Below, in pieces: positions 5,504-47,656 of a stretch of DNA of 64,000 nucleotides. The number at the start of each line of letters is the position of its first letter. The stretch's first letter is position 1. The translations under genes and the position numbers were made by a program. The notes beneath the pieces were generated by a model. The model was not told where the DNA came from, did not search any database, and saw nothing but the letters and a program-made list of their open reading frames with translations. The stretch comes from Candidatus Omnitrophota bacterium (GTDB lineage Bacteria; Omnitrophota; Omnitrophia; Omnitrophales; Aquincolibacteriaceae). The DNA lies in NCBI GenBank assembly GCA_041666865.1, contig JBAYGD010000005.1, positions 50,208 through 114,207 of the forward strand, in the 5' to 3' direction.

Positions 5504-6355
5504 TTATTCCTTTATGTTCGCAAGATAACACTGATGGGAATGCTTCTCTTCCTTCTGATACGCTCCCAACCGCTGGATCAGGAGGTCAAAATTGATCTGG
5601 TGGCCGTCGAATTCCGGTCCGTCGACGCAGGTGTAACGCGTTTCATTGCCGACCTCGACGCGGCACCCTCCGCACATCCCGGTCCCGTCGATCATGATTG
5701 TATTGAGCGATACGAGCGTTCGGATCCCGGAAGGCCGGGTGACGTTGCAGACATTCTTCATCATGATGACGGGCCCCACGGCCACAACTTCCACAATCGG
5801 CCGTCCCTGCTCGAGATGGCTCTTGAGCTCGTCGGTCACGAACCCTTTGCGGCCGTAGCTTCCGTCATCGGTCGTGACGTAGACTTCGTCAGCGAAAGAG
5901 CGGAATTCCTTCTCTAGGATGACGATGTCGCGTGAGCGTGCGCCCAAAATGATCACGGTCTTGTTGCCGCTTTCCTTGTGCGCCCTGGCAATCGGAAGAA
6001 TTTCGGCGGCCCCGACCCCGCCCCCGATAAGAAAAACTTCTCCGCCGAGCTTCTCAAGCGGCGTCGGATGCCCCAGCGGACCCGCAACATTGGCAATCGC
6101 ATCCCCGGCCTTGAGGTTCCCCATCTCGGTCGTGGTCTTGCCAAGGGCCTGGACATAGACCGTAATGGTGCCGGCCGCAGAATCGGCGTCGGCAATCGTG
6201 ATCGGAAATCTCTCGCCTTCTTCGTGCAGGCGAAAAATGACGAATTGGCCGGGCTTGCGTTTGCGCGCGATCAAGGGAGCTTCGATGACGAAGCGGTTGA
6301 CCACGGGGTTGACTTTTTCCTTTTCGAGAATCCGGTACATGGTTTTTCCTTTCAA
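5504..6355 (-). CDS. nfnA: NfnA / sulfide dehydrogenase beta-like subunit (FAD and [2Fe-2S], dihydroorotate dehydrogenase electron-transfer subunit family)
   Basis: 283 aa. C-terminal Cys motif ...GTGMCGGCRVEVGNETRYTCVDGPEF is typical of PyrK/NfnA. Lies 6 bp upstream of nfnB. Confidence 0.85.
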   Translation of the reverse strand: MKGKTMYRILEKEKVNPVVNRFVIEAPLIARKRKPGQFVIFRLHEEGERFPITIADADSAAGTITVYVQALGKTTTEMGNLKAGDAIANVAGPLGHPTPLEKLGGEVFLIGGGVGAAEILPIARAHKESGNKTVIILGARSRDIVILEKEFRSFADEVYVTTDDGSYGRKGFVTDELKSHLEQGRPIVEVVAVGPVIMMKNVCNVTRPSGIRTLVSLNTIMIDGTGMCGGCRVEVGNETRYTCVDGPEFDGHQINFDLLIQRLGAYQKEEKHSHQCYLANIKE

Positions 6356-7664: not shown

Positions 7665-7830
7665 GAATCAAATTCACATGCTAGTGTTTAAGTAAGGGCA
7701 AATCCCCCTTCTTGTATCCAAGAGGGCATCCTCCGATGGGGATGGAGAAATCGGGAGACGCAAAGCCACAGTCCCTACCACCCGGGCGTTCCGGGTGCGG
7801 GAGGCTGGGTTGCCGGAAAGGAAGCTTTTC

Positions 7831-11920: not shown

Positions 11921-12559
11921 ATGGAAACCACGTGGTGGATTGCGCCGTTTTTTGCGGGACTGTCCACAGGGCTCTATTGCCTCGGCTCCTGCTTCCCGTT
12001 CATCACGTCCTTCCTCGTCGCCGAACGCCGTAGTTTCCGGGAAAACGTCTGGCTGCTCGCGCAATTTATGGCGGGAAGACTCGCCGGTTATCTGGCTTTC
12101 GGGGCGGTTTTCGGATTTTTGGGCGCGGCCCTAGACCAGACGTGGATCCGCCTTCTCGCCGATGTCGCCATGATCGGGCTTTCCGTTCTTTTGGCCGTTT
12201 ATCTCATCCGTCTCCAGGCGCAAAAACGGCAAGCCTGCTGTCCGGCCTCCCGGCTCGGCGCCCAAAGCCCGGTCGCGATGGGGTTCTTCATGGGCATCAA
12301 TCTCTGTCCGCCGTTTCTCATCTCCCTGACTTATGTCTTTACCCTCCACAGCACTTGCCGGGGCATCGCCTATTTCCTGATTTTTTTCCTCTCGAGCTCC
12401 CTCTACTTTCTGCCGCTCGTCTTTGCGGGCGCCCTGGCCCGTCTCCGCGGCTTTCAGGCCGCGGCTCGCCTCGGCGGCTTTTTCGCGGCAGTTCTTTTTT
12501 TTGTTGTCGGGATTCTTTCCATGGCGGATAATCTGATTCGCTGGTTTCAAAAAGGCTAG
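11921..12559 (+). CDS. polytopic membrane protein with CxxxC motif (DsbD_2/CcdA-like or TauE-like)
   Basis: 212 aa with 6 predicted TM helices. LYCLGSC motif in the first helix. Ends at the TAG at 12557-12559, immediately at the left arm of the palindromic repeat. Confidence 0.4.
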   Translation: METTWWIAPFFAGLSTGLYCLGSCFPFITSFLVAERRSFRENVWLLAQFMAGRLAGYLAFGAVFGFLGAALDQTWIRLLADVAMIGLSVLLAVYLIRLQAQKRQACCPASRLGAQSPVAMGFFMGINLCPPFLISLTYVFTLHSTCRGIAYFLIFFLSSSLYFLPLVFAGALARLRGFQAAARLGGFFAAVLFFVVGILSMADNLIRWFQKG

Positions 12560-12629
12560 GGGCCATTTCCTACAGGTACAGGCCTCTTCACGACCAAAGC
12601 CAAGGCCTGTACCTGTAGGAAATGGCCCC
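12559..12629. repeat. perfect 27-bp inverted-repeat element, copy 1 (arms GGGGCCATTTCCTACAGGTACAGGCCT)
   Basis: Left arm 12559-12585, 17-nt loop (cttcacgaccaaagcca), right arm 12603-12629 is the exact reverse complement. A second copy with identical arms is at 22141-22213. Confidence 0.9.
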
Positions 12630-12768
12630 TTCGTTGCACAAAAAATTTACCTTCATCCTCCCGGGACTTTTCCTGATCGCCCTCATCGCCCCCTCTCTAT
12701 GGCTTATTTCAGGCCTTGCCCACAGCGCCGGCTGGTTCGAAGAGCAGCCGGGGACTGAACATCTCGCC

Positions 12769-13761
12769 ATGTATTACGACAAACTGCCGAACCGGATGGT
12801 CCAGTGCCGCCTGTGCCCCAACCGGTGCATGCTTGCACCCGGCCAATTCGGCACATGCAAGGCGCGGAAAAATATCGGCGGAGATTTGTATTCGATGGTC
12901 TACGGTAAAATCGCCTCGGCGCACGTCGACCCCATCGAGAAGAAACCTTTTTTTCATGTCCTCCCCGGAAGCAAGGCCTTTTCCATCGCCACGACCGGCT
13001 GCAATATGCACTGCCTTTTCTGCCAAAACTGGGAGCTTTCCCAAGCCTTCCCTCATGAAGTCCCCTCCATCCCCATGACCCCGGCCCAGGTCGTCGAAGA
13101 GGCTGCGCGCAGCGGCTCGCGTTCCATTGCCTTCACCTATAATGAGCCTGTCATCAACTACGAGTTCATGCTCGAAACGGCAAGGATCGCCCGTTCGCGG
13201 GGAATCAAAAGCATCGTCATAAGCGCGGGGTATATCAACCCGGAGCCGCTCGCCGAGCTGCTTAGGACGGTCGACGCTTACAAGGTCGACTTCAAGGCCT
13301 TCCGCGAGGAATTCTATCAAAAGCTGACCGGCGGTCATTTGGCCGATGTTCTCGAAACCATGCAACTCATCCACAAAAGCGGCGTCTGGCTCGAAGTCCT
13401 GAACCTTCTCGTTCCGGGTGAAAACGACAGCGAGGCCGAAATCCGCGAGCTTTCCCGCTGGATCCGGGAGAACCTGGGCCCGGATGTGCCCCTCCATTTT
13501 TCCCGCCATTTTCCTCAGTACAAGCTTCGCAATCTGCCGCCCACGCCGATCGAAACGGTTTTGCGTGCGCGCGCCATCGCGCGGGAGGAGGGCCTCCGGT
13601 ACGTGTACACGGGCAACGTCGCCTTCCCCGAGGGAGAAGCAACCCTTTGTCCGGGCTCGGGCCAAAAGGTCATCGAGCGGATCGCTCATGCTGTCATTTC
13701 GAACAACCTCAAGAACGGAGAGTGCGCCGATGGAGAAAAAATTCCCGGAATCTGGAATTAA
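12769..13761 (+). CDS. amrS: AmmeMemoRadiSam system radical SAM enzyme
   Basis: Family-typical N-terminus MYYDKLPNRMVQCRLCPNRCMLAPGQFGTCKARKN... and radical SAM CxxxCxxC (ATTGCNMHCLFCQNW). The listed ORF starts at 12622 inside the palindromic repeat, which is probably an artefactual extension. Confidence 0.8.
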   Translation: MYYDKLPNRMVQCRLCPNRCMLAPGQFGTCKARKNIGGDLYSMVYGKIASAHVDPIEKKPFFHVLPGSKAFSIATTGCNMHCLFCQNWELSQAFPHEVPSIPMTPAQVVEEAARSGSRSIAFTYNEPVINYEFMLETARIARSRGIKSIVISAGYINPEPLAELLRTVDAYKVDFKAFREEFYQKLTGGHLADVLETMQLIHKSGVWLEVLNLLVPGENDSEAEIRELSRWIRENLGPDVPLHFSRHFPQYKLRNLPPTPIETVLRARAIAREEGLRYVYTGNVAFPEGEATLCPGSGQKVIERIAHAVISNNLKNGECADGEKIPGIWN

Positions 13762-13891
13762 ACGCCTTTGCAAGTGGATGGAGTGCATGGCCGTAGTTGC
13801 AATCAATAAAAGACAAGCCCTGACCGCCTTGACGTGCAACTACGGCCATGCATCCGTGTGGATAGTGATTTTTCTGATTGGGGGGATTTTC

Positions 13892-20639: not shown

Positions 20640-20830
20640 ACCGACCGTTTAGGTGTTGGGGTTGGTGCGTAACCACCACCATTCCACACGAGACCGTCAA
20701 GGTCTCGGTGGATGGCACTCAACCAACAAGGTTGAGTGCTCGCCTGCGGACTCGTGCGCTTTGCGCAGCACCAACCCGGTTGGGGTTGGTGCGTAACCAC
20801 CACTCGCCTGCGGACTCGTGCGTGGTTACG
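20640..20830. repeat. tRNA-trailer repeat block: two direct copies of GGTTGGGGTTGGTGCGTAACCACCAC ... (C)TCGCCTGCGGACTCGTGCG, plus 9-bp-stem hairpins
   Basis: Unit A is at 20653-20678 and 20778-20803. Unit B is at 20739-20758 and 20804-20822. Hairpins: cacctaaac/gtttaggtg, cactcaacc/ggttgagtg, gcaccaacc/ggttggtgc. Similar pieces occur next to tRNA-Phe (23461-23530, inverted) and tRNA-Met (39080-39140). Confidence 0.7.
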
Positions 20831-20912
20831 TGCGGCGAGAGGGAATTGAACCCCCACCCCTTTCGGGACAGGATCCTAAGTCCTGCGCGTCTGCCAGTTT
20901 CGCCATCGCCGC
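20831..20912 (-). tRNA. tRNA-Leu (anticodon TAG), long variable arm
   Basis: The minus-strand sequence GCGGCGATGGCGAAACTGGCAGACGCGCAGGACTTAGGATCCTGTCCCGAAAGGGGTGGGGGTTCAATTCCCTCTCGCCGCA folds as a cloverleaf with anticodon loop CTTAGGA. CCA is not encoded. Confidence 0.85.
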
Positions 20913-21948: not shown

Positions 21949-22051
21949 GGAAAACCCCTCCTTCCGGGATTCTTCCTATCATCGGCAAAAAACAATCGGT
22001 TTTTTCTGTTTTTTGCCGCCATTCCTCTTTATAATCTTCTCCACAATACAA

Positions 22052-22125
22052 GCGCCCGTAGCTCAATTGGATAGAGCATTTGCCTTCGGAGCAAAGGGTT
22101 GCGTGTTCAAGTCACGCCGGGCGCA
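22052..22125 (+). tRNA. tRNA-Arg (anticodon TCG)
   Basis: GCGCCCGTAGCTCAATTGGATAGAGCATTTGCCTTCGGAGCAAAGGGTTGCGTGTTCAAGTCACGCCGGGCGCA is 74 nt with anticodon loop CTTCGGA. Confidence 0.85.
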
Positions 22126-22140
22126 CTCCTTCTCGCATCA

Positions 22141-22213
22141 GGGGCCATTTCCTACAGGTACAGGCCTCCTCTTACTTGCCAAGTTTAGGCCTGTACCTGT
22201 AGGAAATGGCCCC
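22141..22213. repeat. perfect 27-bp inverted-repeat element, copy 2 (same arms as 12559-12629, different 19-nt core)
   Basis: Left arm 22141-22167, core cctcttacttgccaagttt, right arm 22187-22213. Sits between convergent tRNA-Arg (+) and the ROK kinase gene (-). Confidence 0.9.
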
Positions 22214-22218
22214 TATTG

Positions 22219-23169
22219 CTATGGCTCAAACGCCAGGGCAAGAGCGCCCAAATTCCCGACACGGTCGCCGAGCGTCGTCCTCACAATGCGCACCGCGCGG
22301 TAGGCTTGCTTCCACGATTTTTGGCGGCAGGTTTTTCGGAAGGTTTTCCAAAAAACGGGCGGAGCTGACTTGAGCATGCCCCCTCCCAGGATAATTTTTC
22401 CCGGATTCAAAATATTCAGGAGATTGGCCACCCCGACCCCGAGGTAGAAACCCGCCCGCTCATAGGCCCCGAGTGCCAGCCGGTCGCCCCGCGCAGCCTG
22501 GGCCCCGATCGCCCGAGCACTCACCTGCCCGCCAGGATCCCTGTATTTTTTGAGTCCGGCCGGCGTCCCGACGCGGGACCGGACATAACGGGCCACCGCC
22601 GTCCCGGAAGCATAGGCCTCCAGCACTCCCACTTCGCCAAGCTTCCATTTTTCACCTCGGGGTTCGACCGTCATATGACCGACTTCCCCGGCGACAAAGC
22701 TGACCCCCTCGAGGAGTTTGCCGTTCGATACGATCCCTCCCCCGACTCCGGTACTGACTGTCATATAAATGAAATGCGCAACACCGCGGCCTGCTCCGAA
22801 TAATTTTTCGGCCAAAGCGGCGGCATTGGCGTCATTGGCCAAGCGCACGGGTAAACGGAACTTTCGGGAAAGTTTTTCGGCGAGAGGAAACCCCGCCCAG
22901 CCTTCCAGATGAGGAGAAACGGGGACCACGCCTTTGGCCGTGTTGACGGCTCCGGGAAGACAAACGCCGATGCCCCGAATCCGGGCTTTCGGAATGTCGG
23001 CCTCGGCCAGAAGACCCTCGAGGGCTTCGAGAAGTTTGCGCACGCACAGGGCAGCATGACGTCCCTTGAGGGTCCTGATCTCACAATGCGCGAGGATCTT
23101 TCCCCGTTCATTTCCGATGGACGCTGAAATTTTCGTCCCGCCGATATCGATCCCGATTGCGTAGCGCAT
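22219..23169 (-). CDS. ROK-family sugar kinase (glucokinase-like)
   Basis: 316 aa. N-terminal IGIDIGGTKI and a ROK Cys/His block (...GHMTV...). Confidence 0.8.
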   Translation of the reverse strand: MRYAIGIDIGGTKISASIGNERGKILAHCEIRTLKGRHAALCVRKLLEALEGLLAEADIPKARIRGIGVCLPGAVNTAKGVVPVSPHLEGWAGFPLAEKLSRKFRLPVRLANDANAAALAEKLFGAGRGVAHFIYMTVSTGVGGGIVSNGKLLEGVSFVAGEVGHMTVEPRGEKWKLGEVGVLEAYASGTAVARYVRSRVGTPAGLKKYRDPGGQVSARAIGAQAARGDRLALGAYERAGFYLGVGVANLLNILNPGKIILGGGMLKSAPPVFWKTFRKTCRQKSWKQAYRAVRIVRTTLGDRVGNLGALALAFEP

Positions 23170-23316
23170 ACGAAAATTAATATATCAGAAAGTAAAAGGG
23201 GTCACACCTATTTAAATGCGGACGGGTTCGTGGGATGCCGATGCCGTTCGCATCGGCAAGGTTTGATCGGAGGTGCACTCATAATTGGTTGCGGAATAAT
23301 AGATGGGCGTTACTAT

Positions 23317-23343
23317 GGCCCTTTTGCTAGCGGCAAAAGGGCC
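23317..23343. other. perfect 11-bp stem-loop GGCCCTTTTGC-tagcg-GCAAAAGGGCC just downstream of tRNA-Phe
   Basis: Palindrome at 23317-23343. There is no U-tract on either strand, so it could be a processing or structural element rather than an intrinsic terminator. Confidence 0.5.
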
Positions 23344-23378
23344 ATTCCACCACTCACCCTGCTGGGTTCGTGTGTGGA

Positions 23379-23451
23379 ATGGGCAGGGAGGGAATTGAAC
23401 CCCCGACACAGGGATTTTCAGTCCCTTGCTCTACCGACTGAGCTACCTGCC
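23379..23451 (-). tRNA. tRNA-Phe (anticodon GAA)
   Basis: GGGCAGGTAGCTCAGTCGGTAGAGCAAGGGACTGAAAATCCCTGTGTCGGGGGTTCAATTCCCTCCCTGCCCA is 73 nt. Confidence 0.9.
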
Positions 23452-23582
23452 CGTAAACATACATGAGCCCGCAGGCGAATGATGATCACGCACCAACCCC
23501 CACCGGGTTGGTGCCAGCATCCTCATCCTGCAAGCGTGCGATGGGACGCCAATCATACTGGACATGCAAAAATGTGTCAAGC

Positions 23583-39053: not shown

Positions 39054-39144
39054 AAGGTTGAGGGCTCGTGTCTCTTGCGCTGCACCTATCCGGTTGGGAT
39101 AGGTGCGTATCCATCACTCGCCTGCGGGCTCGTGTATGGAGACG

Positions 39145-39217
39145 TGGCGGGGAGGAGAATCGAACTCCTGACACGAGGCTTATGAGTCCTCTGCTCTACC
39201 AACTGAGCTACCCCGCC
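39145..39217 (-). tRNA. tRNA-Met (anticodon CAT), elongator-like (G1:C72). A tRNA-Ile2(LAU) identity cannot be excluded from sequence alone.
   Basis: GGCGGGGTAGCTCAGTTGGTAGAGCAGAGGACTCATAAGCCTCGTGTCAGGAGTTCGATTCTCCTCCCCGCCA is 73 nt. Lies 92 nt upstream of tilS on the same strand. Confidence 0.8.
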
Positions 39218-39269: not shown

Positions 39270-42200
39270 CTAAGCAAAGGTTCGCGTTCCGTCCTTCTGG
39301 TGCCGGTAACGAAAATTCGTGGTTTCCCCGAGAGCTCCCGCCCATGAAGTCGACTGGACCAGTGCGTAAGTGCCGTCCGCAAGTTTGATCGCATAAGTAT
39401 TGCCTTCGAGGGCCCCCACGGACGTCGTGTAACCGCTAAGAGGGACTTCCGTCACGGTGTCGATGCCCACTCCCCCCATATCCACGATACCGTTCGAGGC
39501 ATTGACCTGCAGCTCATTCCCATTAAAATTTCGTCTGAAATCATACACGGGGCCGAGAACGCCTGCCCCCAAGGGATTAACCCGTTTTGCCGTGAAATCG
39601 TATTCCTGAATCCATCCGTCGGCAGCGGCCATCATATCGGTCTGAACCAAGCTGAAAGTCCCGGTTTCGATCTGGGATGACGAAGCACCCCCGGAATCTT
39701 GCGTCTCGCCCGCTCCGGGCTGCACGGGAATGCGCTCCACCTCCGCCACGCGAATCTCCTCAACGACCGTTTGACTCAAACCGCTGGATTCAGCGATTTG
39801 CGGCGAGAGGGTGGCGTAAATCAGGTTGCCGCGCAGGTTCTGGATCTTCATCTCGCCGTCCTCGAGCACGAAGATCATCGTGGTCCGGCCGGTCGTTTTC
39901 TGGTCCTGGCCGGTCTGGCGCGGAGTTTGGGTCTTGTCCCACTTCGTGTCCGCGATGTAGGTATTTCCGCGGACCTCGATCCGGTTGACGAAGATCATGA
40001 GCCGGATGTTCATAAACATGTCGAAATCGTAGCGTACCCCTTCCGCTAGAAAAACCCGGTCTCCGATAAAATCCCGGGCAATCAAGCGCTCGAATTTCCC
40101 AAGGTCCTGGGTCTCGTAGGCTTCTGCAAGCTTTTTCGTCGTCGCCACGACAAGATCTTCATATTTGATCGGTTGATGAATGATTCCGAAGAGATTGGGA
40201 AAGAACGGAAGCATCGCTTCCTGGCCGTCGTTCGTCCTGATCCTGAGGACCAGTTGGTAGAGCTTGTCAGGGACCGGATAGAACCGGTAAGAGATGTTCG
40301 CATTGAGCGGGATCTCGTTCCAGGTACGCCCGTCGTCCTCGGAAACCAGCAGCTTCTCGATCCTGTCCGTGCTCGACAGCCTGGCCGTAATCTCGACCGC
40401 CCCAGCGACAAGATCAGAGTTGGTGATCACCACTTCTCCGGAAGCACTGTCAAGGCGGCGCGTATTCAGCCGCACATCCGTCAGCTGGTAAAATCCCGAC
40501 ATGACAGGATCCATGTCCACCGCGCCCACACCGCCGCCTGTCGCCCCTCCCTGGCCGGATCCGGACAAGCCGCCCGTGACTCCCCCTCCGCCTCCGGCGC
40601 CTCCGAGCGAACTTCCGCCGGGGGGACCGGCCTGCATGATTTTTTTGCAGTTCTCGATCATGCCGTCCACTTCGGTCTCGATCATTTTCATGCCCTCGAT
40701 GTCTTGGAGGGCATCGGGGACCAGAATTTCGGTGTTCTTTCGCATGGACACCGTTTCCCTTTGATAGGCTTCGAGTTTTTGCAAAAGCGGCGTGGAGGGA
40801 AGGGCATATTGAACTTCACGTTTGAAATTTTCAAACCTTTCCTGCATCACCTTGAGATTGTTCTTGGTCGCCACACGGGACGTTTTGAATTTGGCGATTT
40901 CCGTTGCAAGCTGCTTTTCGAATTCGGCAAGGCGCACCGGGATCTTCACGTACTCGTCGAAAAGTCTGCTCGTCGTGGGATCTGCGGTGCCAAAAAACGA
41001 TTTTCCCAGGGCCGCGTAGGTCCCATGGATCTTTTGGGCCGCCTCGATCTGATCCTTTCGGGCCTCCCAAGCTTTTTTCATTTCGGCAATATACGCGGCG
41101 GCGTCAGATTCCTCGGGTTTGACCGAAGCGCTCCATTTGCCGTCCTTCATGTGGGCAGTGCGTTCGATATCCACTCTGCGCAGGTCCTCCGCCTCGTATT
41201 TCCTGAGCTCCGGAGCGTCGAGCAGCCGCCAAAACCGGGCCGCCAAAGCCGCCGGCCCTTCCAACTCCTCGAGTTTTGTGATCTCCTCGGAAATCCACCG
41301 GAGCCCCGCCTGGTAGCCGGTCGCCACATCCACTTCATCTTTCAATCGCTCCCATGGCCGGTCGCCGATATAAACCGTGACGACAGGCGCACCCTCGTCG
41401 CGAAGGGCCTGAAGCGGCTCCAGAGGTCCCGCCACCATCCACGTCACATGCATCATCGCCGTCCACGACTCCGGATCCCCATAACCGCCTCCGTAGTATT
41501 CACGGTAATCTTTTTGAACGATGCTTTCGAATTCGTTTTTGAGAGCGTCGTAAGCATCTCTGAGTTTTTTGGCGTTCGCGCGGTGCTCGGACTGAATGCC
41601 AGCGGCCACGGGGGCATCCTTTTCGATGTCCCGTTTGTACATCCGAAGAGGTTCGCCGACCTTGAGCACCTCCTCGGGAATCCTCCGGTCTCCCATGTAA
41701 GGCGCCTCATATTTAACCTGGGATTCCGGCCCGCTGTAGACCGCCGGATATTTGAGAAGGGTCTGAACCTTGTCGCCCAGAGCCTCTTCGCCGTCGGTGT
41801 AAGCTTTGTAGGCCTTCTCCCACGTTTCCCTCATTTTTTCACAATCGGCCTTGAGGTCGTCGACCATTTTCTTGTTCCGCTGAAAAGCCTCGAGCGTGAC
41901 CAAGGCTTCCCTGGCCGCAAGGGCCTCCAGATCCTTCCCCCTTTTTGCAGGCCATTCCATGTAAAGAGCGCTCGTGATACGGTTCTGCGCGCCGGGATCC
42001 ATATCGGGCTTCAGCTGGGCCGCCAGATCCGAAAACTGCTTGTCGTTTTCCGCGATGACCTTTTTCCTGCTCTCGACATAATAATTCCACAACTCCTGCG
42101 CCTTCTTGTAATCGTAACCGGAACTGTAATTATCCGTGATTTCCGAATACGCCGCCTCGAGATCGCTGAGAATCGTTCCGGCGGCAATCGGCGTATACGC

Positions 42201-43361
42201 AATCGACGTCTTGACGGCATTCATTTCCGACTCAACCTCGGAAATGCCGGATTCGAGGTCCTTCTTTTGGTTCCCGTAGAGGTTGGTCTTGTAGTCCTCG
42301 ATCATCTTGAGGTAGGGATCGGCCTGCGCAAAAACACTTTCCAAGGCCGAGCGGGCCTCCTTGTTGGCGGCATCGCTTTTTTGCTCCAGCTCGCGAATTT
42401 TTTCCGCAAACTCTCGTTCGATCGCCTCCATTTTTCTCTTCTCTTCCAGAACATTCGCTTTCATTTTTTCGAGAGTGGCAAGGATGGCCGCTTTCATTTC
42501 GTCCCCCGCCTCCTCGTGGGTCTCGGAGTTCCCGTCATATCGGGCATACAAGCGGGTATTCGAGCCGATATAATCATTCCATTCATTCTCGACATGAGCC
42601 TTGAGGTCGGTCGTTTGGATCCACTCGGCAAAGGCCTTGGGATTCGATTCCGGCGGAAAAGGAAGGACATCCCGGACATTGCCCTCGAGCGCCGAGGTAA
42701 AAGCTTCGCTCATGATGTAAGCGCCAAGGGCCTCCACAATGCCCTGCGCGACACGGTAAAGCTTCCAGCCCGGAACGAGATATTCGAGAACCTCATCCGC
42801 CGCGGCCTTGCCGAAAGCCTCAAACCCCTTTCTCAGGTCGCCCGTTTTGCGCCATTCCGTCAGTCCTTTGACGGCCACCTTCGCCGACGTAATTCCCGTC
42901 TTCAGGGCATTGAGGCGCGTGTCGATCTTGCTCACGAGCTCCGCGTTTGCGGCACTCCAGGCGGCGCTTGTGGTCATCTTCTCGACCAAAACCTGGTGCA
43001 TCATCGCAGGGACCTTCTCCTTGAACATCGCTTCGCGCATCTTGGCGGCGGCGACGTTCGCCATCTCTTTTTTCAGGCGGTCCCAGGCCAACTCCCCGCT
43101 CTTGGCCACAATCCGCTCGGTCCCCTTCGTGAGAAGATACTGGACCTTCTCCTCGTCTGTTTTGAGCGATTGGTATTCCGTCACGTCCTTGAGAAAATCC
43201 CGAACCCCTTCAAGCAAGGCTTTGGAGGCGCGTTTCGACGCCCCGCTGTCGGCAGATGCTTTGGCGGCAAAAAGCGCCGGATTCGAGCCGGAAGTCATGA
43301 CCAACGAAACAGCAAGTCCTGCACAAAACAACGCCTTCAGTGCTTTGGGTATCATAAACAT
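39270..43361 (-). CDS. giant secreted helical/coiled-coil protein, paralog A (1363 aa), unknown family
   Basis: Signal peptide (MFMIPKALKALFCAGLAVSLVMTSGSNPALFA). About 900 aa rich in A/E/K with a predicted helical body. Gly-rich linker (GGSSLGGAGGGGGVTGGLSGSGQGGATGGGVG). C-terminal conserved module shared with B and C. The second ATG (43355) has better SD spacing. Confidence 0.8.
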   Translation of the reverse strand: MFMIPKALKALFCAGLAVSLVMTSGSNPALFAAKASADSGASKRASKALLEGVRDFLKDVTEYQSLKTDEEKVQYLLTKGTERIVAKSGELAWDRLKKEMANVAAAKMREAMFKEKVPAMMHQVLVEKMTTSAAWSAANAELVSKIDTRLNALKTGITSAKVAVKGLTEWRKTGDLRKGFEAFGKAAADEVLEYLVPGWKLYRVAQGIVEALGAYIMSEAFTSALEGNVRDVLPFPPESNPKAFAEWIQTTDLKAHVENEWNDYIGSNTRLYARYDGNSETHEEAGDEMKAAILATLEKMKANVLEEKRKMEAIEREFAEKIRELEQKSDAANKEARSALESVFAQADPYLKMIEDYKTNLYGNQKKDLESGISEVESEMNAVKTSIAYTPIAAGTILSDLEAAYSEITDNYSSGYDYKKAQELWNYYVESRKKVIAENDKQFSDLAAQLKPDMDPGAQNRITSALYMEWPAKRGKDLEALAAREALVTLEAFQRNKKMVDDLKADCEKMRETWEKAYKAYTDGEEALGDKVQTLLKYPAVYSGPESQVKYEAPYMGDRRIPEEVLKVGEPLRMYKRDIEKDAPVAAGIQSEHRANAKKLRDAYDALKNEFESIVQKDYREYYGGGYGDPESWTAMMHVTWMVAGPLEPLQALRDEGAPVVTVYIGDRPWERLKDEVDVATGYQAGLRWISEEITKLEELEGPAALAARFWRLLDAPELRKYEAEDLRRVDIERTAHMKDGKWSASVKPEESDAAAYIAEMKKAWEARKDQIEAAQKIHGTYAALGKSFFGTADPTTSRLFDEYVKIPVRLAEFEKQLATEIAKFKTSRVATKNNLKVMQERFENFKREVQYALPSTPLLQKLEAYQRETVSMRKNTEILVPDALQDIEGMKMIETEVDGMIENCKKIMQAGPPGGSSLGGAGGGGGVTGGLSGSGQGGATGGGVGAVDMDPVMSGFYQLTDVRLNTRRLDSASGEVVITNSDLVAGAVEITARLSSTDRIEKLLVSEDDGRTWNEIPLNANISYRFYPVPDKLYQLVLRIRTNDGQEAMLPFFPNLFGIIHQPIKYEDLVVATTKKLAEAYETQDLGKFERLIARDFIGDRVFLAEGVRYDFDMFMNIRLMIFVNRIEVRGNTYIADTKWDKTQTPRQTGQDQKTTGRTTMIFVLEDGEMKIQNLRGNLIYATLSPQIAESSGLSQTVVEEIRVAEVERIPVQPGAGETQDSGGASSSQIETGTFSLVQTDMMAAADGWIQEYDFTAKRVNPLGAGVLGPVYDFRRNFNGNELQVNASNGIVDMGGVGIDTVTEVPLSGYTTSVGALEGNTYAIKLADGTYALVQSTSWAGALGETTNFRYRHQKDGTRTFA

Positions 43362-43468: not shown

Positions 43469-46400
43469 TTACGTAAAACTCCGTGTTCCGTTCTTCTGGT
43501 GCCGGTAATGGAACGTCGTCGTATACGGCATCGGGACATCCCCCCAGGCCGTCGACTGAACGAGCGCGAACGTCCCATCCGCAAGCCTGATCGCGTAGGT
43601 ATTCCCCGCCGTCGCGCTGATCGAGGTGGCGTATCCGGACTCAGGAACCTCTTTCACGCCGTTGATATCGACCGCTCCCATATCGAGGACTCCGTTGCTC
43701 GCGTTGACCTCCATCCATCCTTCCCGCCGCCGGAAATCATAGACCGGACCAAAATTGTCGATCGCGGCCACCTGTTTCGAGCTAAAACGATATTCCTGGA
43801 TCCAACCCGCCGCCGGATGGCCCGTGGTTTGGACGAGACTGAACGTGCCCGTCTCGATGTTCGTGGCGCCGCTTGCGAGCCCGCCGGAATCTTCCGTCGT
43901 GCCGGCTCCGGGTTGTACCGGCTCTCTTTGCTCTTGGGCGATGCGGATCTCATCGACCGCCGTCTGGCTCAGACCGCTGGATTCCGCAATCTGCGGCGAG
44001 AGAGTGGCGTAAATTAGGTTGCCGCGAAGATTCTGGATCTTCATCTCGCCGTCCTCGAAGACAAAGATCATGGCCGTTCTTCCGCTCGTTTTCTGCTCTT
44101 GCCCGGTTTTCCGCGGCGTCTGGGTCTTATCCCACTTCGTCTCTGCGACAAAAGTATTTCCGCGCATCTCGATCCGGTTGATGTAGAGCGCCAGACGGAT
44201 AGACATGAACATATCGAAATCAAAACGCACGCCTTCGGACAAGAAGACCCGGTTTCCGAGAAAATCGCGCGAAACGAGACGTTCAAAACGCGCAAGATCC
44301 TGCGTCTCGTACGCCTCGGCGATTTTGGTGACGGTCTCCATCAAAAGCTTTTCGTAATTGATCGAGCGGTAGAGGATCCCGTTGATATTCGGAAAAAAGG
44401 GAATGCTCGCCTCCCCGCCGGCCGCATTCTTGATCTTCAAAACCGGCTGATAGAGCCGTTCCGGTGCCGGTACAAAACGGTAAAGGATATCGGAATTCAC
44501 CGGAATTTCATTCCACGATCCGCCGTTGCCCTCGGAAACAAGGAGGGTCCGCACTCCGTCGATCGTGTCGAGGCGTGCGGTCACCTCGAAGGCACCGCTT
44601 CGAAGGTCGGCAGGGGTCGCGATCACGTCCCCGGAGGCGTTCTGGAGGCTTCGAGTATTGAGCCGCGTGTCGAGGAGGCGGTAGTCTTTCATCTCGGCTT
44701 TACGGGTTTCTTCTTCTTTCTTCTTTCTCTCCGCTTCATCCTCTTCGCGTCGCCGGCGCTCCTCTTCGTCCCTTCGCATCTGGTCGTCGAATTTTTTCTT
44801 GTCCTCTTCGGACTGCTTGACAGCCTCGTTAATCGCCTTTTCGACATCCTCTTTCAGTTTGCCCCACCCCGCATTCACCGCCTTGAGGTGATCCGTACCG
44901 CCGTGCGTCAGCCAAACCCCGGTCAACTGGGCGCCGTTCTTGGCATTGGCCAAAACAGGCTTCAGCCGGTCGGGCCTGTAAGCGGCAATCGTCTCCTTGA
45001 CGATCCTGTCGAATTCCTGACGGGCCTCCGTCAGATATTTTTCCGAAAGGGCCGTCCGGTCCTCATAACTCTTTTTCCCGCGCTCCAGGGCCGCTTCATA
45101 AATGCGGATTCTTTCGGGCACCGAATCCCACGCATCCAAAAGGCGGTACGTGTGGTCGTAGAAATCAAACTTGTATTTGACGGCTCTTCCGATCTTTTTT
45201 CTGAGCTTGTCGAGCCGGTCCACCAGCTCCTTGTTGGCCTCCCAGGCCGCTTTGAGCTCGGCAAGATACTTGGCCCCCTCGGAGTTTTCCGGCACGACGA
45301 ACATATGCGCGCTGTCGTTGTATTGATAAGGAGTCGCTTCGTCAGCCTTCCTTTTTTCATCGTCCACCGTCCGGTCTGGGAGCATCATCATGATGCGTGT
45401 CTCCGTGACACGAGTCATGACCGAAAGAAATATTTTGGCCAGTTCGTCCGGATAGGACAGGTTCTCCGCCTCCGTAATCTTCGGCTGCAGAGCCCTCAAG
45501 GCCTTGTCGGCCTCATAGGGATTTTTCGCGAGGAAGGTCCGGTAATCGGCCGCCGGCATATAGCCCCACACGCGGTAGATCACGACCCCGCCGGACTCAT
45601 ACCAGACCTCCGAAAGAAGCTCGGACCCCCAAGGCGCGTAAAAACGGTTCATGAAGCAAAAAGCCTCCACCGCATCATTGGTGGGACCTTCCTGGAGGAT
45701 GAGGGCCTTGGGGATCACCGACCGGTAGACCTTGAGGACCTCCATGGCAGTCGCATAAAATTTCTCGAAGTTCTCTTTCTCTTTGGCGTGAAGCGGCCCC
45801 GCCGCCGCAACGTCCGCCGTGATCGCATCCTTTTGCCGGAGCAGTCCTTCCCTCGCCTTGACCACATCGCCGACCCACTCGTATTCGCCGCTCAAAGCAT
45901 TCACCATACTCTCCAAGAAATCCGGGCTACGCCACGCCCCCGCATAATTCAGGGCCCCCACGGCCGCTTCCAATTCATTGCGCGACTGGGCATACCCTTC
46001 TACAGCGCTGTTCAGTTTCTCGGCCGCTTCGCCGAGCTTCGTCACAATTTCCTGCCGTTTTTTTGCGGCCCGTTCCGCGGCCCCGGCGTATGCCACCTGC
46101 TCCTTGGCCGCAAGGACTTCGATGTCCTTGGCCTGCTCCGAGTGGAGAATCCAAGCATTCACGACATTAAAGTGCGGCGTAGCGGCATTGCTCCAAGCAT
46201 TCGAAATCGCATTGTATTGCGCCGCAAGCGCGTTGCGATGGGCTTCGTCTCTTGCAGCGTTCATCTGATCGCCGATCGAACGCAGCTGGGGCAAATACTG
46301 GGCCGACAGCTGTTCCAGGACCTTGGAAGACGCCTCAATTTTATTTGCGATATCCTCGCTCGACTTCTGAATCGCTTTGGTTCGGACTTCCTGATAATGT

Positions 46401-47656
46401 TTGTACAAATCGGAAATCTTTTCGGCGTCGTAGCCGTCCGTACCGCTCTCCTTGATCCCGTCGAGCGCCGCCTCCAGGGCACTCAACACCGACCCCTGAT
46501 CCATCGGAGTATACTGCGCGGCCATGCGAACTTTTGTGTACCAGGCCTTCTGCTGCGCCTGCTCCTGCTCTTCCTCGGTCACATTTTCTTGGGCGTCCTG
46601 TTTCGCGAACCCGCCGATTGCATTTTCGTAATTTTGGATAACTTTGAAGGCAGGCTCAAATTGGCTCATCGCCTTGTCCGCGGTATCCTTGACGGCATCC
46701 GAGGCCTTGGCCGCCTGGTCGTCGAGCTCGCTGAGCTTCTGGCGCAGTTCGGACTCGACCTGCTTTTTCTGCTGGACCTCGCCCTTGAGCTTGTTGAGTT
46801 CGGCAATAATCGCCATCTTCATATTCTCGCCCTCATTGCCCGCGCCCTTCAGATACCACCCCCCATAGGCTAGCTGCTCGTCCCACTCCCGTTGGACATA
46901 CGAGGCAATATCGACCTTCTGGATCCAGTCGACAAATCCGGCCGGATTGGTCTGGGGATCGTTCGCACCTAGAACCACCTTCATCTTGGCCTCAAGGGCC
47001 GTATCGAAGGCATAGTTCACCACGTACTCCCCGATGGCTTTCACGAGATCCTGAGCCAGCTTATACCAGCCCCAGCCCGGGACCAAATAAGCGACGATTT
47101 TGTCGCCGATCTTTTCCCCGAGCTTCCGGAGCCCGGCCTCTGTCCCTTTTTTGCTCCAGGCATCCAGGACATCCCACCCGATCTCGACCGCATCCAGGGC
47201 GCCCTTGACAGCGTTCATCTGGGTGTCAAGTTTGCTTTTCATGGTCGCGTCGACCTGCGACCAAATCCCACTCACCGTCTTTCCTTCCACGACCACCTGG
47301 TGAAGCATCGAGGGAATTTCCGCTTTGAAGAGGTCCGACTTGAGACGTGCTTTCGCGTACTCGAGGAGCTTCGCCTTGATCGTATCTTTCACGAGCTTGA
47401 CGGACTGCTTCTGGATGCGCTCCCTGCCCTTGGTCAAAATGTACTGGACCTTCTGCTGATCCGACATGCCGCTCATCTCGTCGAGGTCTTTGACGAGGTT
47501 CGTAAACTGCTTGATCAGTTCCTGGGCCGCTTTGCCCGCCGCAGTTTTTTCGAACGGTTTTTCTTCGGCAAAAGCGCAGGGGTTCAGAGACAGGAAAGCA
47601 ACAAGCAAGAAGCTGGCGGCTCCCTTCAAGGCTTCGCGCAAAATATTCCTTTCCAT
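43469..47656 (-). CDS. giant secreted helical/coiled-coil protein, paralog B (1395 aa), unknown family
   Basis: Signal peptide (…AASFLLVAFLSLNPCAFA-EEKP). N-terminal block collinear with A and C (YLVPGWGWYKLAQDLVKAIGEYVVNYAFDTALEA). E/R/K-rich linker (DEEERRRREEDEAERKKKEEETRKAE). C-terminal module is 70-80% identical to A by eye. Confidence 0.8.
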   Translation of the reverse strand: MERNILREALKGAASFLLVAFLSLNPCAFAEEKPFEKTAAGKAAQELIKQFTNLVKDLDEMSGMSDQQKVQYILTKGRERIQKQSVKLVKDTIKAKLLEYAKARLKSDLFKAEIPSMLHQVVVEGKTVSGIWSQVDATMKSKLDTQMNAVKGALDAVEIGWDVLDAWSKKGTEAGLRKLGEKIGDKIVAYLVPGWGWYKLAQDLVKAIGEYVVNYAFDTALEAKMKVVLGANDPQTNPAGFVDWIQKVDIASYVQREWDEQLAYGGWYLKGAGNEGENMKMAIIAELNKLKGEVQQKKQVESELRQKLSELDDQAAKASDAVKDTADKAMSQFEPAFKVIQNYENAIGGFAKQDAQENVTEEEQEQAQQKAWYTKVRMAAQYTPMDQGSVLSALEAALDGIKESGTDGYDAEKISDLYKHYQEVRTKAIQKSSEDIANKIEASSKVLEQLSAQYLPQLRSIGDQMNAARDEAHRNALAAQYNAISNAWSNAATPHFNVVNAWILHSEQAKDIEVLAAKEQVAYAGAAERAAKKRQEIVTKLGEAAEKLNSAVEGYAQSRNELEAAVGALNYAGAWRSPDFLESMVNALSGEYEWVGDVVKAREGLLRQKDAITADVAAAGPLHAKEKENFEKFYATAMEVLKVYRSVIPKALILQEGPTNDAVEAFCFMNRFYAPWGSELLSEVWYESGGVVIYRVWGYMPAADYRTFLAKNPYEADKALRALQPKITEAENLSYPDELAKIFLSVMTRVTETRIMMMLPDRTVDDEKRKADEATPYQYNDSAHMFVVPENSEGAKYLAELKAAWEANKELVDRLDKLRKKIGRAVKYKFDFYDHTYRLLDAWDSVPERIRIYEAALERGKKSYEDRTALSEKYLTEARQEFDRIVKETIAAYRPDRLKPVLANAKNGAQLTGVWLTHGGTDHLKAVNAGWGKLKEDVEKAINEAVKQSEEDKKKFDDQMRRDEEERRRREEDEAERKKKEEETRKAEMKDYRLLDTRLNTRSLQNASGDVIATPADLRSGAFEVTARLDTIDGVRTLLVSEGNGGSWNEIPVNSDILYRFVPAPERLYQPVLKIKNAAGGEASIPFFPNINGILYRSINYEKLLMETVTKIAEAYETQDLARFERLVSRDFLGNRVFLSEGVRFDFDMFMSIRLALYINRIEMRGNTFVAETKWDKTQTPRKTGQEQKTSGRTAMIFVFEDGEMKIQNLRGNLIYATLSPQIAESSGLSQTAVDEIRIAQEQREPVQPGAGTTEDSGGLASGATNIETGTFSLVQTTGHPAAGWIQEYRFSSKQVAAIDNFGPVYDFRRREGWMEVNASNGVLDMGAVDINGVKEVPESGYATSISATAGNTYAIRLADGTFALVQSTAWGDVPMPYTTTFHYRHQKNGTRSFT

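Follow-up and report, generated by a model that had tools for sequence, protein, structure and literature searches.

We analysed a stretch of 64,000 nucleotides (nt; hereafter the window) from contig JBAYGD010000005.1 of an uncultured Candidatus Omnitrophota species, read together with its flanks as 76 kb of contiguous sequence, and we describe here a long hairpin element that occurs in it twice. Copy 1 occupies positions 12558-12630 (73 nt) and consists of a left arm (12558-12585), a 17-nt loop (12586-12602, CTTCACGACCAAAGCCA) and a right arm (12603-12630). Copy 2 occupies positions 22140-22214 (75 nt), with a left arm at 22140-22167, a 19-nt loop at 22168-22186 (CCTCTTACTTGCCAAGTTT) and a right arm at 22187-22214. 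An exact search of the window places the 27-mer GGGGCCATTTCCTACAGGTACAGGCCT at 12559-12585 and 22141-22167 on the forward strand, and its exact reverse complement at 12603-12629 and 22187-22213 on the reverse strand. One further A...T pair outside the 27-mer extends each arm to 28 nt, and the repeat finder found all 28 pairs complementary in both copies. A sequence-only reading of this DNA had described two copies with perfect 27-bp arms around different cores of 17 and 19 nt. The positions, the perfection of the arms and the differing cores are borne out by the search, while the lengths are corrected, as the arms reach 28 nt and the elements measure 73 and 75 nt instead of 71-73 bp.

The hairpin pair is real and lies far beyond chance. 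The window holds no additional match to the 27-mer with up to three mismatches, and 100 dinucleotide-preserving shuffles gave 0 matches. Folded as DNA, copy 1 reaches -35.8 kcal/mol (z -12) and copy 2 reaches -37.7 kcal/mol, which puts the complete element at -36 to -38 kcal/mol, with z of -12 to -13 against shuffles. The corresponding values as RNA are -59.3 kcal/mol for copy 1 and -64.9 to -68 kcal/mol for copy 2. A single arm folds as DNA at -2.8 kcal/mol, which is no better than its shuffles (z 0.04 and -0.19).

Copy 1 is set between the gene of a DsbD_2-family membrane protein (11921-12559, + strand; Pfam PF13386, E 6.5e-19) and amrS, the gene of the AmmeMemoRadiSam radical SAM enzyme (12634-13761, + strand; Pfam Radical_SAM). 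The stop codon TAG of the DsbD_2 gene takes up positions 12557-12559, and its A and G are nucleotides 1 and 2 of the element. On the other side, amrS starts at TTG 12634, 4 nt 3' of copy 1, in agreement with the N-terminal length of its orthologue and with the NCBI model of 375 amino acids (aa; P0001). The longest open reading frame (ORF) of amrS opens at ATG 12622, inside the right arm. Copy 2 lies between the tRNA-Arg(TCG) gene (22052-22126, + strand; ARAGORN, Rfam), whose 3' end is 13 nt before the element, and a ROK-family kinase gene (22219-23169, - strand; Pfam PF00480, E 6.8e-63), which converges on the element and has its stop codon 4 nt from the right arm. Both placements, as well as the extended amrS start within the right arm, had been read correctly from the letters: the ORF coordinates and the Pfam assignments agree at copy 1, and the tRNA end (22126) and the ROK stop agree at copy 2.

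The gene calls around copy 1 vary among databases. Those of ENA skip the DsbD_2 gene and give an opposite-strand ORF of 139 aa (L101 14189-14608 and L107 2948-3367, corresponding to window ~12131-12550). The DsbD_2 gene is present in the JGI and NCBI calls, and amrS is called with 379 aa by JGI (ATG within the arm) and with 375 aa by NCBI. A separate perfect inverted repeat of 18 bp with a 33-nt loop lies at 13784-13852, just 3' of the amrS stop codon (13761) and within the AMMECR1 coding region.

The DNA of the window, element loops included, recurs in four independent assemblies at 99.98-100% DNA identity to the window. These assemblies include ENA ERZ27249449, in which exact protein matches put the window on a contig of 204 kb, JGI 3300037810 (NCBI metagenome-assembled genome (MAG) GCA_041671405.1) and the Logan assembly of SRR6484324. 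Because the same sequence, loops and all, appears in each of them, the hairpin elements are not an assembly artefact. For the family as a whole, an exact 20-mer of the arm was searched over JGI metagenome contigs, a search that needs only one intact arm. Of the ten stretches that it returned, eight hold a complete element; they are spread over seven long contigs of metagenome Ga0172379. The other two (L003 and L012) were rejected as family copies: each matches half of one arm only, in AT-rich DNA and without a second arm to pair with, and two such matches are about what chance predicts for a 20-mer. The Ga0172379 contigs belong to the window species: beside one copy they encode a MetH with 100% identity to a protein that the assembly and sample of the window also contain, and over the 13.8-kb locus no base differs. 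At least ten distinct sites are thereby identified in one species, two in the 76 kb around the window and eight elsewhere, with elements of 70-79 bp. Confinement of the arms to the two window loci is therefore not upheld. In two other assemblies, contigs open 3 nt ahead of the element or break off 20 nt into it, and since assemblers break at multi-copy repeats in this manner, the true copy number is probably several-fold higher.

All ten sites carry inverted pairs of arms, and no solo arm with up to seven mismatches was found in ~140 kb. The 20 arms are 98.4% identical, with 9 mismatches in 560 positions. Arm positions 2-19 (GGGGCCATTTCCTACAGG) are invariant in all 20 arms, and eight of the nine mismatches fall at positions 20-27, on the loop side. 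The copies on L006 and L010 have the arm variant T20G in common and carry unrelated loops, and in the L010 copy C27T occurs in both arms, as a single compensated pair. Loop lengths span 12-23 nt; the loops are AT-rich, with a GC content of 0.39 versus 0.57 for the genome. Pairwise comparison among the ten copies revealed no similarity between loops above shuffled controls. A candidate common motif, GCCAAG/TTGGCA, recurs in four loops and was rejected, as the global comparison does not exceed the shuffles; an origin of the loop as a copy of nearby sequence was also rejected, the comparison with the flanks being negative. At any one locus the loop is identical across assemblies, and it is therefore stably inherited rather than hypervariable. 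The check for target-site duplications, which the sequence-only reading had proposed, found no direct repeat of 2-10 nt adjoining any of the ten copies. No Rfam family matches the element at the gathering threshold, and a search at a permissive threshold gave only generic, miRNA-like long-hairpin models (mir-879, 29.7 bits versus 90).

Immediately outside the element, a right flank with the sequence TTTTGCTATAATC is common to L008 (4038-4052) and L011 (729-743). It was considered as a part of the element and rejected in favour of a simpler identity, an extended -10 promoter. In both cases, 5-7 nt separate the end of this flank from the probable start codon of the gene that follows, a placement that suggests leaderless transcripts, and the flank is probably a promoter that lies outside the element. 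In the window TGCTATAAT occurs once (47788), as an ordinary promoter.

Apart from one or two bases in common with a stop codon, all ten copies are intergenic. A stop codon lies within 10 nt of one end in eight copies, and four copies are placed between convergent transcription units. The L010 copy is located between divergent gene starts, and the L009 copy 33 nt upstream of a gene start. The genome is very compact, with a median intergenic spacer of 17.5 nt, and the spacers at the element sites have a similar median of 16 nt once the element is removed. Special targeting of stop codons is unneeded as an explanation, since the compactness of the genome accounts for the closeness. Insertions would survive only where the flanking genes stay intact. 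The initial AG of the element can rebuild TAG after T and TAA after TA, which would explain the four stop codons that overlap it.

In relatives at 65-78% protein identity, the orthologous sites are without the element. (The nearest GTDB representatives reach an AmrS identity of only 60-67%.) In the closest relative found (Ga0451520, AmrS 78% identity, GC ~50%), the DsbD_2 stop and the amrS start overlap by 4 nt as ATGA, and in a relative at 71% the two genes are 10 nt apart. In the window, the 73-nt element is set exactly between the stop codon (T plus the AG of the element) and TTG 12634. At the metH site, the element is absent in the relative, where the downstream gene differs. Ga0451520 also encodes giant proteins of 8849 and 9630 residues, with no Pfam match on record, beside metH (L099 1-1630 and 13579-23492; L100 8174-18087).

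At site 2, the ROK, tRNA-Arg and M48 peptidase genes are co-oriented in the relatives L108 and L110, and no element lies between ROK and tRNA-Arg. In the window, the tRNA-Arg gene with 13 nt of its 3' flank (22052-22139) is inverted relative to L108 5078-5170 and L110 5835-5910. The alignment shows homology to L108 only in the reverse orientation, and this homology runs exactly up to the left end of copy 2 and no farther. An A/T-rich inverted repeat of 12 bp with a 12-nt spacer was identified at 21983-22018 (CGGCAAAAAACA / TGTTTTTTGCCG), on the second breakpoint of the inversion or close to it. One of its arms shares bases with TTTG(C/T)CGATGATAG, a motif that is kept in the relative upstream of the M48 peptidase gene; the second arm has the look of an inverted duplication made locally. 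This repeat may be tied to the element. The position of copy 2 on an inversion breakpoint is a single case. With at least two outgroups per site, parsimony favours a gain of the element here rather than a loss in the relatives. The empty orthologous sites, a comparison that had also been proposed, support the reading of a dispersed mobile repeat.

As judged from the sequences compared, the elements constitute a multi-copy family of paired hairpins gained by insertion without duplication in one lineage. We consider it probable that they are a lineage-specific, non-autonomous, hairpin-forming repeat family of the type of REPINs (hairpin-forming doublets of repetitive extragenic palindromic, REP, sequences) in one Omnitrophota species. 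This is a new family of a familiar kind of repeat and no new kind of system. REPINs fit better than MITEs (miniature inverted-repeat transposable elements), because neither a target-site duplication nor a conserved core is present. The earlier proposal of a recently mobile, MITE-like or REP-like element is thus supported for mobility and for the REP-like alternative, given the ten sites, the empty orthologous sites and the assembly breaks. The MITE alternative fits less well, and recency is not strictly shown by assemblies that are ~100% identical.

A REPIN-type family of this kind would depend for its copying or movement on a trans-acting enzyme whose gene lies at another place in the genome, and this enzyme may recognise the outer 19 bp of each arm, which are invariant. 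Its substrate would most likely be the folded single-stranded hairpin, as for the Y1/HUH transposases of the group that comprises IS200/IS605 and the REP-associated tyrosine transposases (RAYTs). RAYTs are Y1 (HUH) transposases related to IS200/IS605, and they leave no target duplication. The inner stem and the loop would be dispensable for recognition and free to change. Once inserted, the element would be co-transcribed with its neighbours, and the upstream message may then close at its 3' end with an RNA helix of 28 bp. Established knowledge of the enzymes leads to the expectation that such a helix blocks 3' exonucleases or is cut by RNase III; this effect would be a by-product and not the reason for the existence of the family. 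At site 1, the base of the stem would place the stop codon of DsbD_2 spatially close to the start of amrS, within a few nt, and this may account for the tolerance of an insertion between genes that once overlapped.

Several observations weigh against an assignment to the REPIN type. Neither the 76 kb around the window nor the surroundings of the other eight copies yielded a transposase gene; the DNA read amounts to ~5% of the genome, so this absence of the enzyme is weak evidence. A tblastn search with an IS200 TnpA query likewise gave no match in the DNA read. Two classical REP features are missing, as the single arm is no small palindrome and the ends of the element bear neither GTAG nor CGTC as an unpaired tag. 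Movement was not directly observed, the assemblies being ~100% identical and offering no insertion polymorphism within the species for comparison. Finally, whole elements copied recently should have related loops, and none do, not even the L006 and L010 copies with the same T20G.

The puzzle of the unconserved loop has also been recorded for REPINs (PMC3337134), where its mechanism is likewise unexplained. Three accounts of the unrelated loops and of the T20G common to two copies may be given: selection may maintain the arms while old loops drift, the loop may be made anew at each event, or position 20 may be a mutational hot spot. The AT-richness of the loops fits the first of these. A related idea is that the arms propagate without the loop, the 28-nt unit being laid down as an inverted pair around a new spacer of 12-23 nt and sometimes inverting the adjacent DNA. 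We assign only a small probability to such a new insertion mechanism, and we keep it in view because the loops are unrelated and copy 2 lies at an inversion breakpoint.

Alternatively, the arms could be kept identical by the host as RNA or DNA signals, with mobility confined to their initial spread. Such a signal might be a factor-dependent or U-tract-independent terminator, a 3'-end stabiliser, an RNase III site or a protein-binding site. The near-invariant arms around drifted, AT-rich loops do look like long residence under a constraint on the stem only, and the compensated C27T pair of L010 points in the same direction, but six of the seven unpaired single-arm substitutions break the pairing without compensation. 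The frequent closeness to stop codons (eight of ten copies) and the four copies between convergent units would suit a signal at gene ends; the former is, however, accounted for by genome compactness, and the copies between divergent starts (L010) and upstream of a gene start (L009) do not suit it. The RNA helix is very stable (-59 to -68 kcal/mol), and canonical terminators are scarce in the window, with 14 found versus 22.9 expected in shuffles. Yet a T-run (TTTT) follows the stem in only two of the ten copies (L008 and L011), and the terminator scan does not call the element. A canonical terminator role is accordingly not supported by the sequence, and the bidirectional terminator raised as an alternative in the sequence-only reading finds little backing. 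Moreover, the orthologous sites of relatives work without a hairpin, site 1 being ancestrally an overlapping and presumably translationally coupled gene pair, and identity over 28 nt at ten loci requires copying, whatever function came later. We regard maintenance as a host signal as unlikely.

Two further explanations start from the inverted arms themselves. As a classical MITE, the element would descend by internal deletion from a DDE-type insertion sequence (IS) whose terminal inverted repeats measure 28 bp, and full-length copies would supply the transposase that moves it. The perfect terminal inverted repeats over 28 bp, the small size and the several dispersed, intergenic copies agree with this. 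The target-site duplication of 2-10 bp is found at none of the ten copies, however, and there is no conserved internal sequence; the loops begin with unrelated sequence, and the copies therefore do not derive from a single parent by nested deletion. No contig with widely spaced arms appeared in the metagenome scan, and the arm is absent from plasmid, phage and transposon records, which makes a MITE quite improbable. It is highly improbable that the arms are sites of site-specific recombination or inversion, with the paired arms and their variable spacer acting as crossover sites. In favour of this, the left end of copy 2 is exactly where the inverted homology of tRNA-Arg and its 13-nt flank comes to an end, and a short inverted duplication lies in the other breakpoint region. 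But this is a single case, no second copy of the element lies at the other breakpoint, and the other nine copies show no assessable rearrangement. In addition, no recombinase gene was found in the 76 kb around the window, and spacers of 12-23 nt without a conserved core are unlike the known sites of tyrosine and serine recombinases.

Other identities were examined and rejected. A TA target of the Tc1/IS630 kind is contradicted by the left flanks, where T precedes the element in only four of ten copies, and by the A/T ends, which belong to the palindrome. Ends of the Tn3 family (GGGG...) would come with a 5-bp duplication, which is absent, and the arms are 28 bp rather than ~38 bp. Integron attC sites do not match, because the copies are not arrayed, have no R''/R' core motifs and pair perfectly without extrahelical bases. 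Palindromes of the telomere-resolvase or dif type are disfavoured by the variable spacer of 12-23 nt.

The exact arm has no match in the GTDB representative genomes or in the IMG/VR viral contigs, and blastn of the element against plasmids and phages gave only chance matches (E ~6-7). No diverged form of the family was detected in ~80 kb of relatives, either with up to five mismatches in the invariant 19-mer or by a hairpin scan. The Omnitrophota genome represented by L110 contains, at 5910-6230, tandem units of ~55 nt downstream of tRNA-Arg. Each unit carries a hairpin of 9-11 bp (for example GCACATTTCC-GGATG-GGAAATGTGC), and these hairpins form a repeat family distinct from the one with 28-nt arms.

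The window contains several further features. Imperfect repeats of 57-110 nt (75-83% identity), in direct and inverted orientation, lie at 20745-20854, 23449-23514 and 39059-39168 and adjoin tRNA-Leu, tRNA-Phe and tRNA-Met genes. An exact direct repeat of 25 nt occurs at 20655-20679 and 20779-20803, 124 nt apart. Beside the tRNA-Phe gene, a 13-bp hairpin (ATGGC[C/A]CTTTTGC...) is found at 23315-23345 and at L110 3076-3106; it is kept between the window species and this relative (65% ROK identity), and related hairpins recur in L110. A c-di-GMP-I riboswitch aptamer was identified at 7687-7817 (+ strand) with 42 bits versus an Rfam gathering threshold of 35. Two neighbouring paralogous genes (39270-43361 and 43469-47656, - strand) encode proteins of ~1360-1395 aa with no Pfam match on record, and the repeats that they have in common at a spacing of 4193-4199 nt indicate a tandem gene duplication.

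The element adds a REPIN-like repeat family for Omnitrophota, whose members are known almost exclusively through metagenomes; our literature search found no REPIN family described in this phylum. The family provides a data point on the reach of REPIN-like repeats beyond Proteobacteria and leaves the general understanding of such elements unchanged. A doublet hairpin can exist without the small REP palindrome and the GTAG tag that are thought to be recognised by RAYTs, which would mean either that a different enzyme is at work or that the rules of recognition are broader than assumed. The perfect 73-nt hairpin set exactly between two genes that overlap in a relative, and supplying part of a stop codon, is a clean natural example of such an insertion. 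In practice, the repeat breaks the assemblies of this organism and misleads start calling, as in the amrS ORF that is extended into the arm. Propagation of the arms without their loop, if true, would amount to an insertion chemistry undescribed for REPINs, MITEs or IS elements, and could explain why no two REPIN spacers match.

Among known systems, bacterial MITEs (Correia/NEMIS of Neisseria, ERIC/RU-1 of enterobacteria) are also small, non-coding and dispersed, with terminal inverted repeats and hairpins that are co-transcribed with neighbouring genes. Unlike the element, they possess a conserved core, duplicate their target site (TA in Correia elements) and as a rule have a full-length IS relative; nothing of this was seen here. 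The REP families with GTAG/CGTC tags (Di Nocera et al. 2013; PMC3733652) resemble the element as short extragenic palindromic sequences at gene ends that form inverted dimers, head-to-head or tail-to-tail, with variable spacers. Their stems are 5-13 bp long and bear an unpaired GTAG or CGTC tag at one end (PMC3733652), whereas the stem here is 28 bp, its ends read AGGGGCC/GGCCCCT, and its sole GTAG is base-paired within the stem.

Long perfect hairpins of the same dimensions (stems of 26-30 bp, loops of 13-21 nt) were also observed in Terriglobia (L074 5969-6047 and 2586-2654), Poribacteria (L029 13-91) and another Omnitrophota MAG (L042 32-100). At L074 2586-2654, the arms are made of three CTTGGTG direct repeats. 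The hairpins at L074 5969-6047 (from a Terriglobia MAG), L029 13-91 and L042 32-100 match the element in dimensions, with stems of 28-30 bp and loops of 13-21 nt, and the first is a REP doublet, its arm being a textbook REP (GTAG plus CGGCGGG-TTTA-CCCCGCC). The arm sequences of the three are unrelated to the 28-nt arm, and one copy was seen of each.

The closest likeness is to the REPINs of Pseudomonas and other Proteobacteria and their RAYTs (Bertels & Rainey 2011; PMC3116915, PMC3337134). The differences are that the halves here are not small imperfect palindromes, that the spacer is shorter (12-23 nt) and that the stem is perfect over 28 bp. REPINs also have a cognate single-copy RAYT (PF01797), usually flanked by the repeats, which was not found in the ~5% of the genome read here. 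REPINs are dispersed in tens to hundreds of copies, and the present family has at least ten. In both cases, two inverted conserved units of ~25-30 nt form one long hairpin, doublets outnumber singlets, and the copies are extragenic, lineage-specific and without target duplication. The spacer is unconserved and of variable length in both as well: no two spacers are identical among Pseudomonas REPINs (PMC3337134), and those of REP dimers often vary in sequence and size (PMC3733652).

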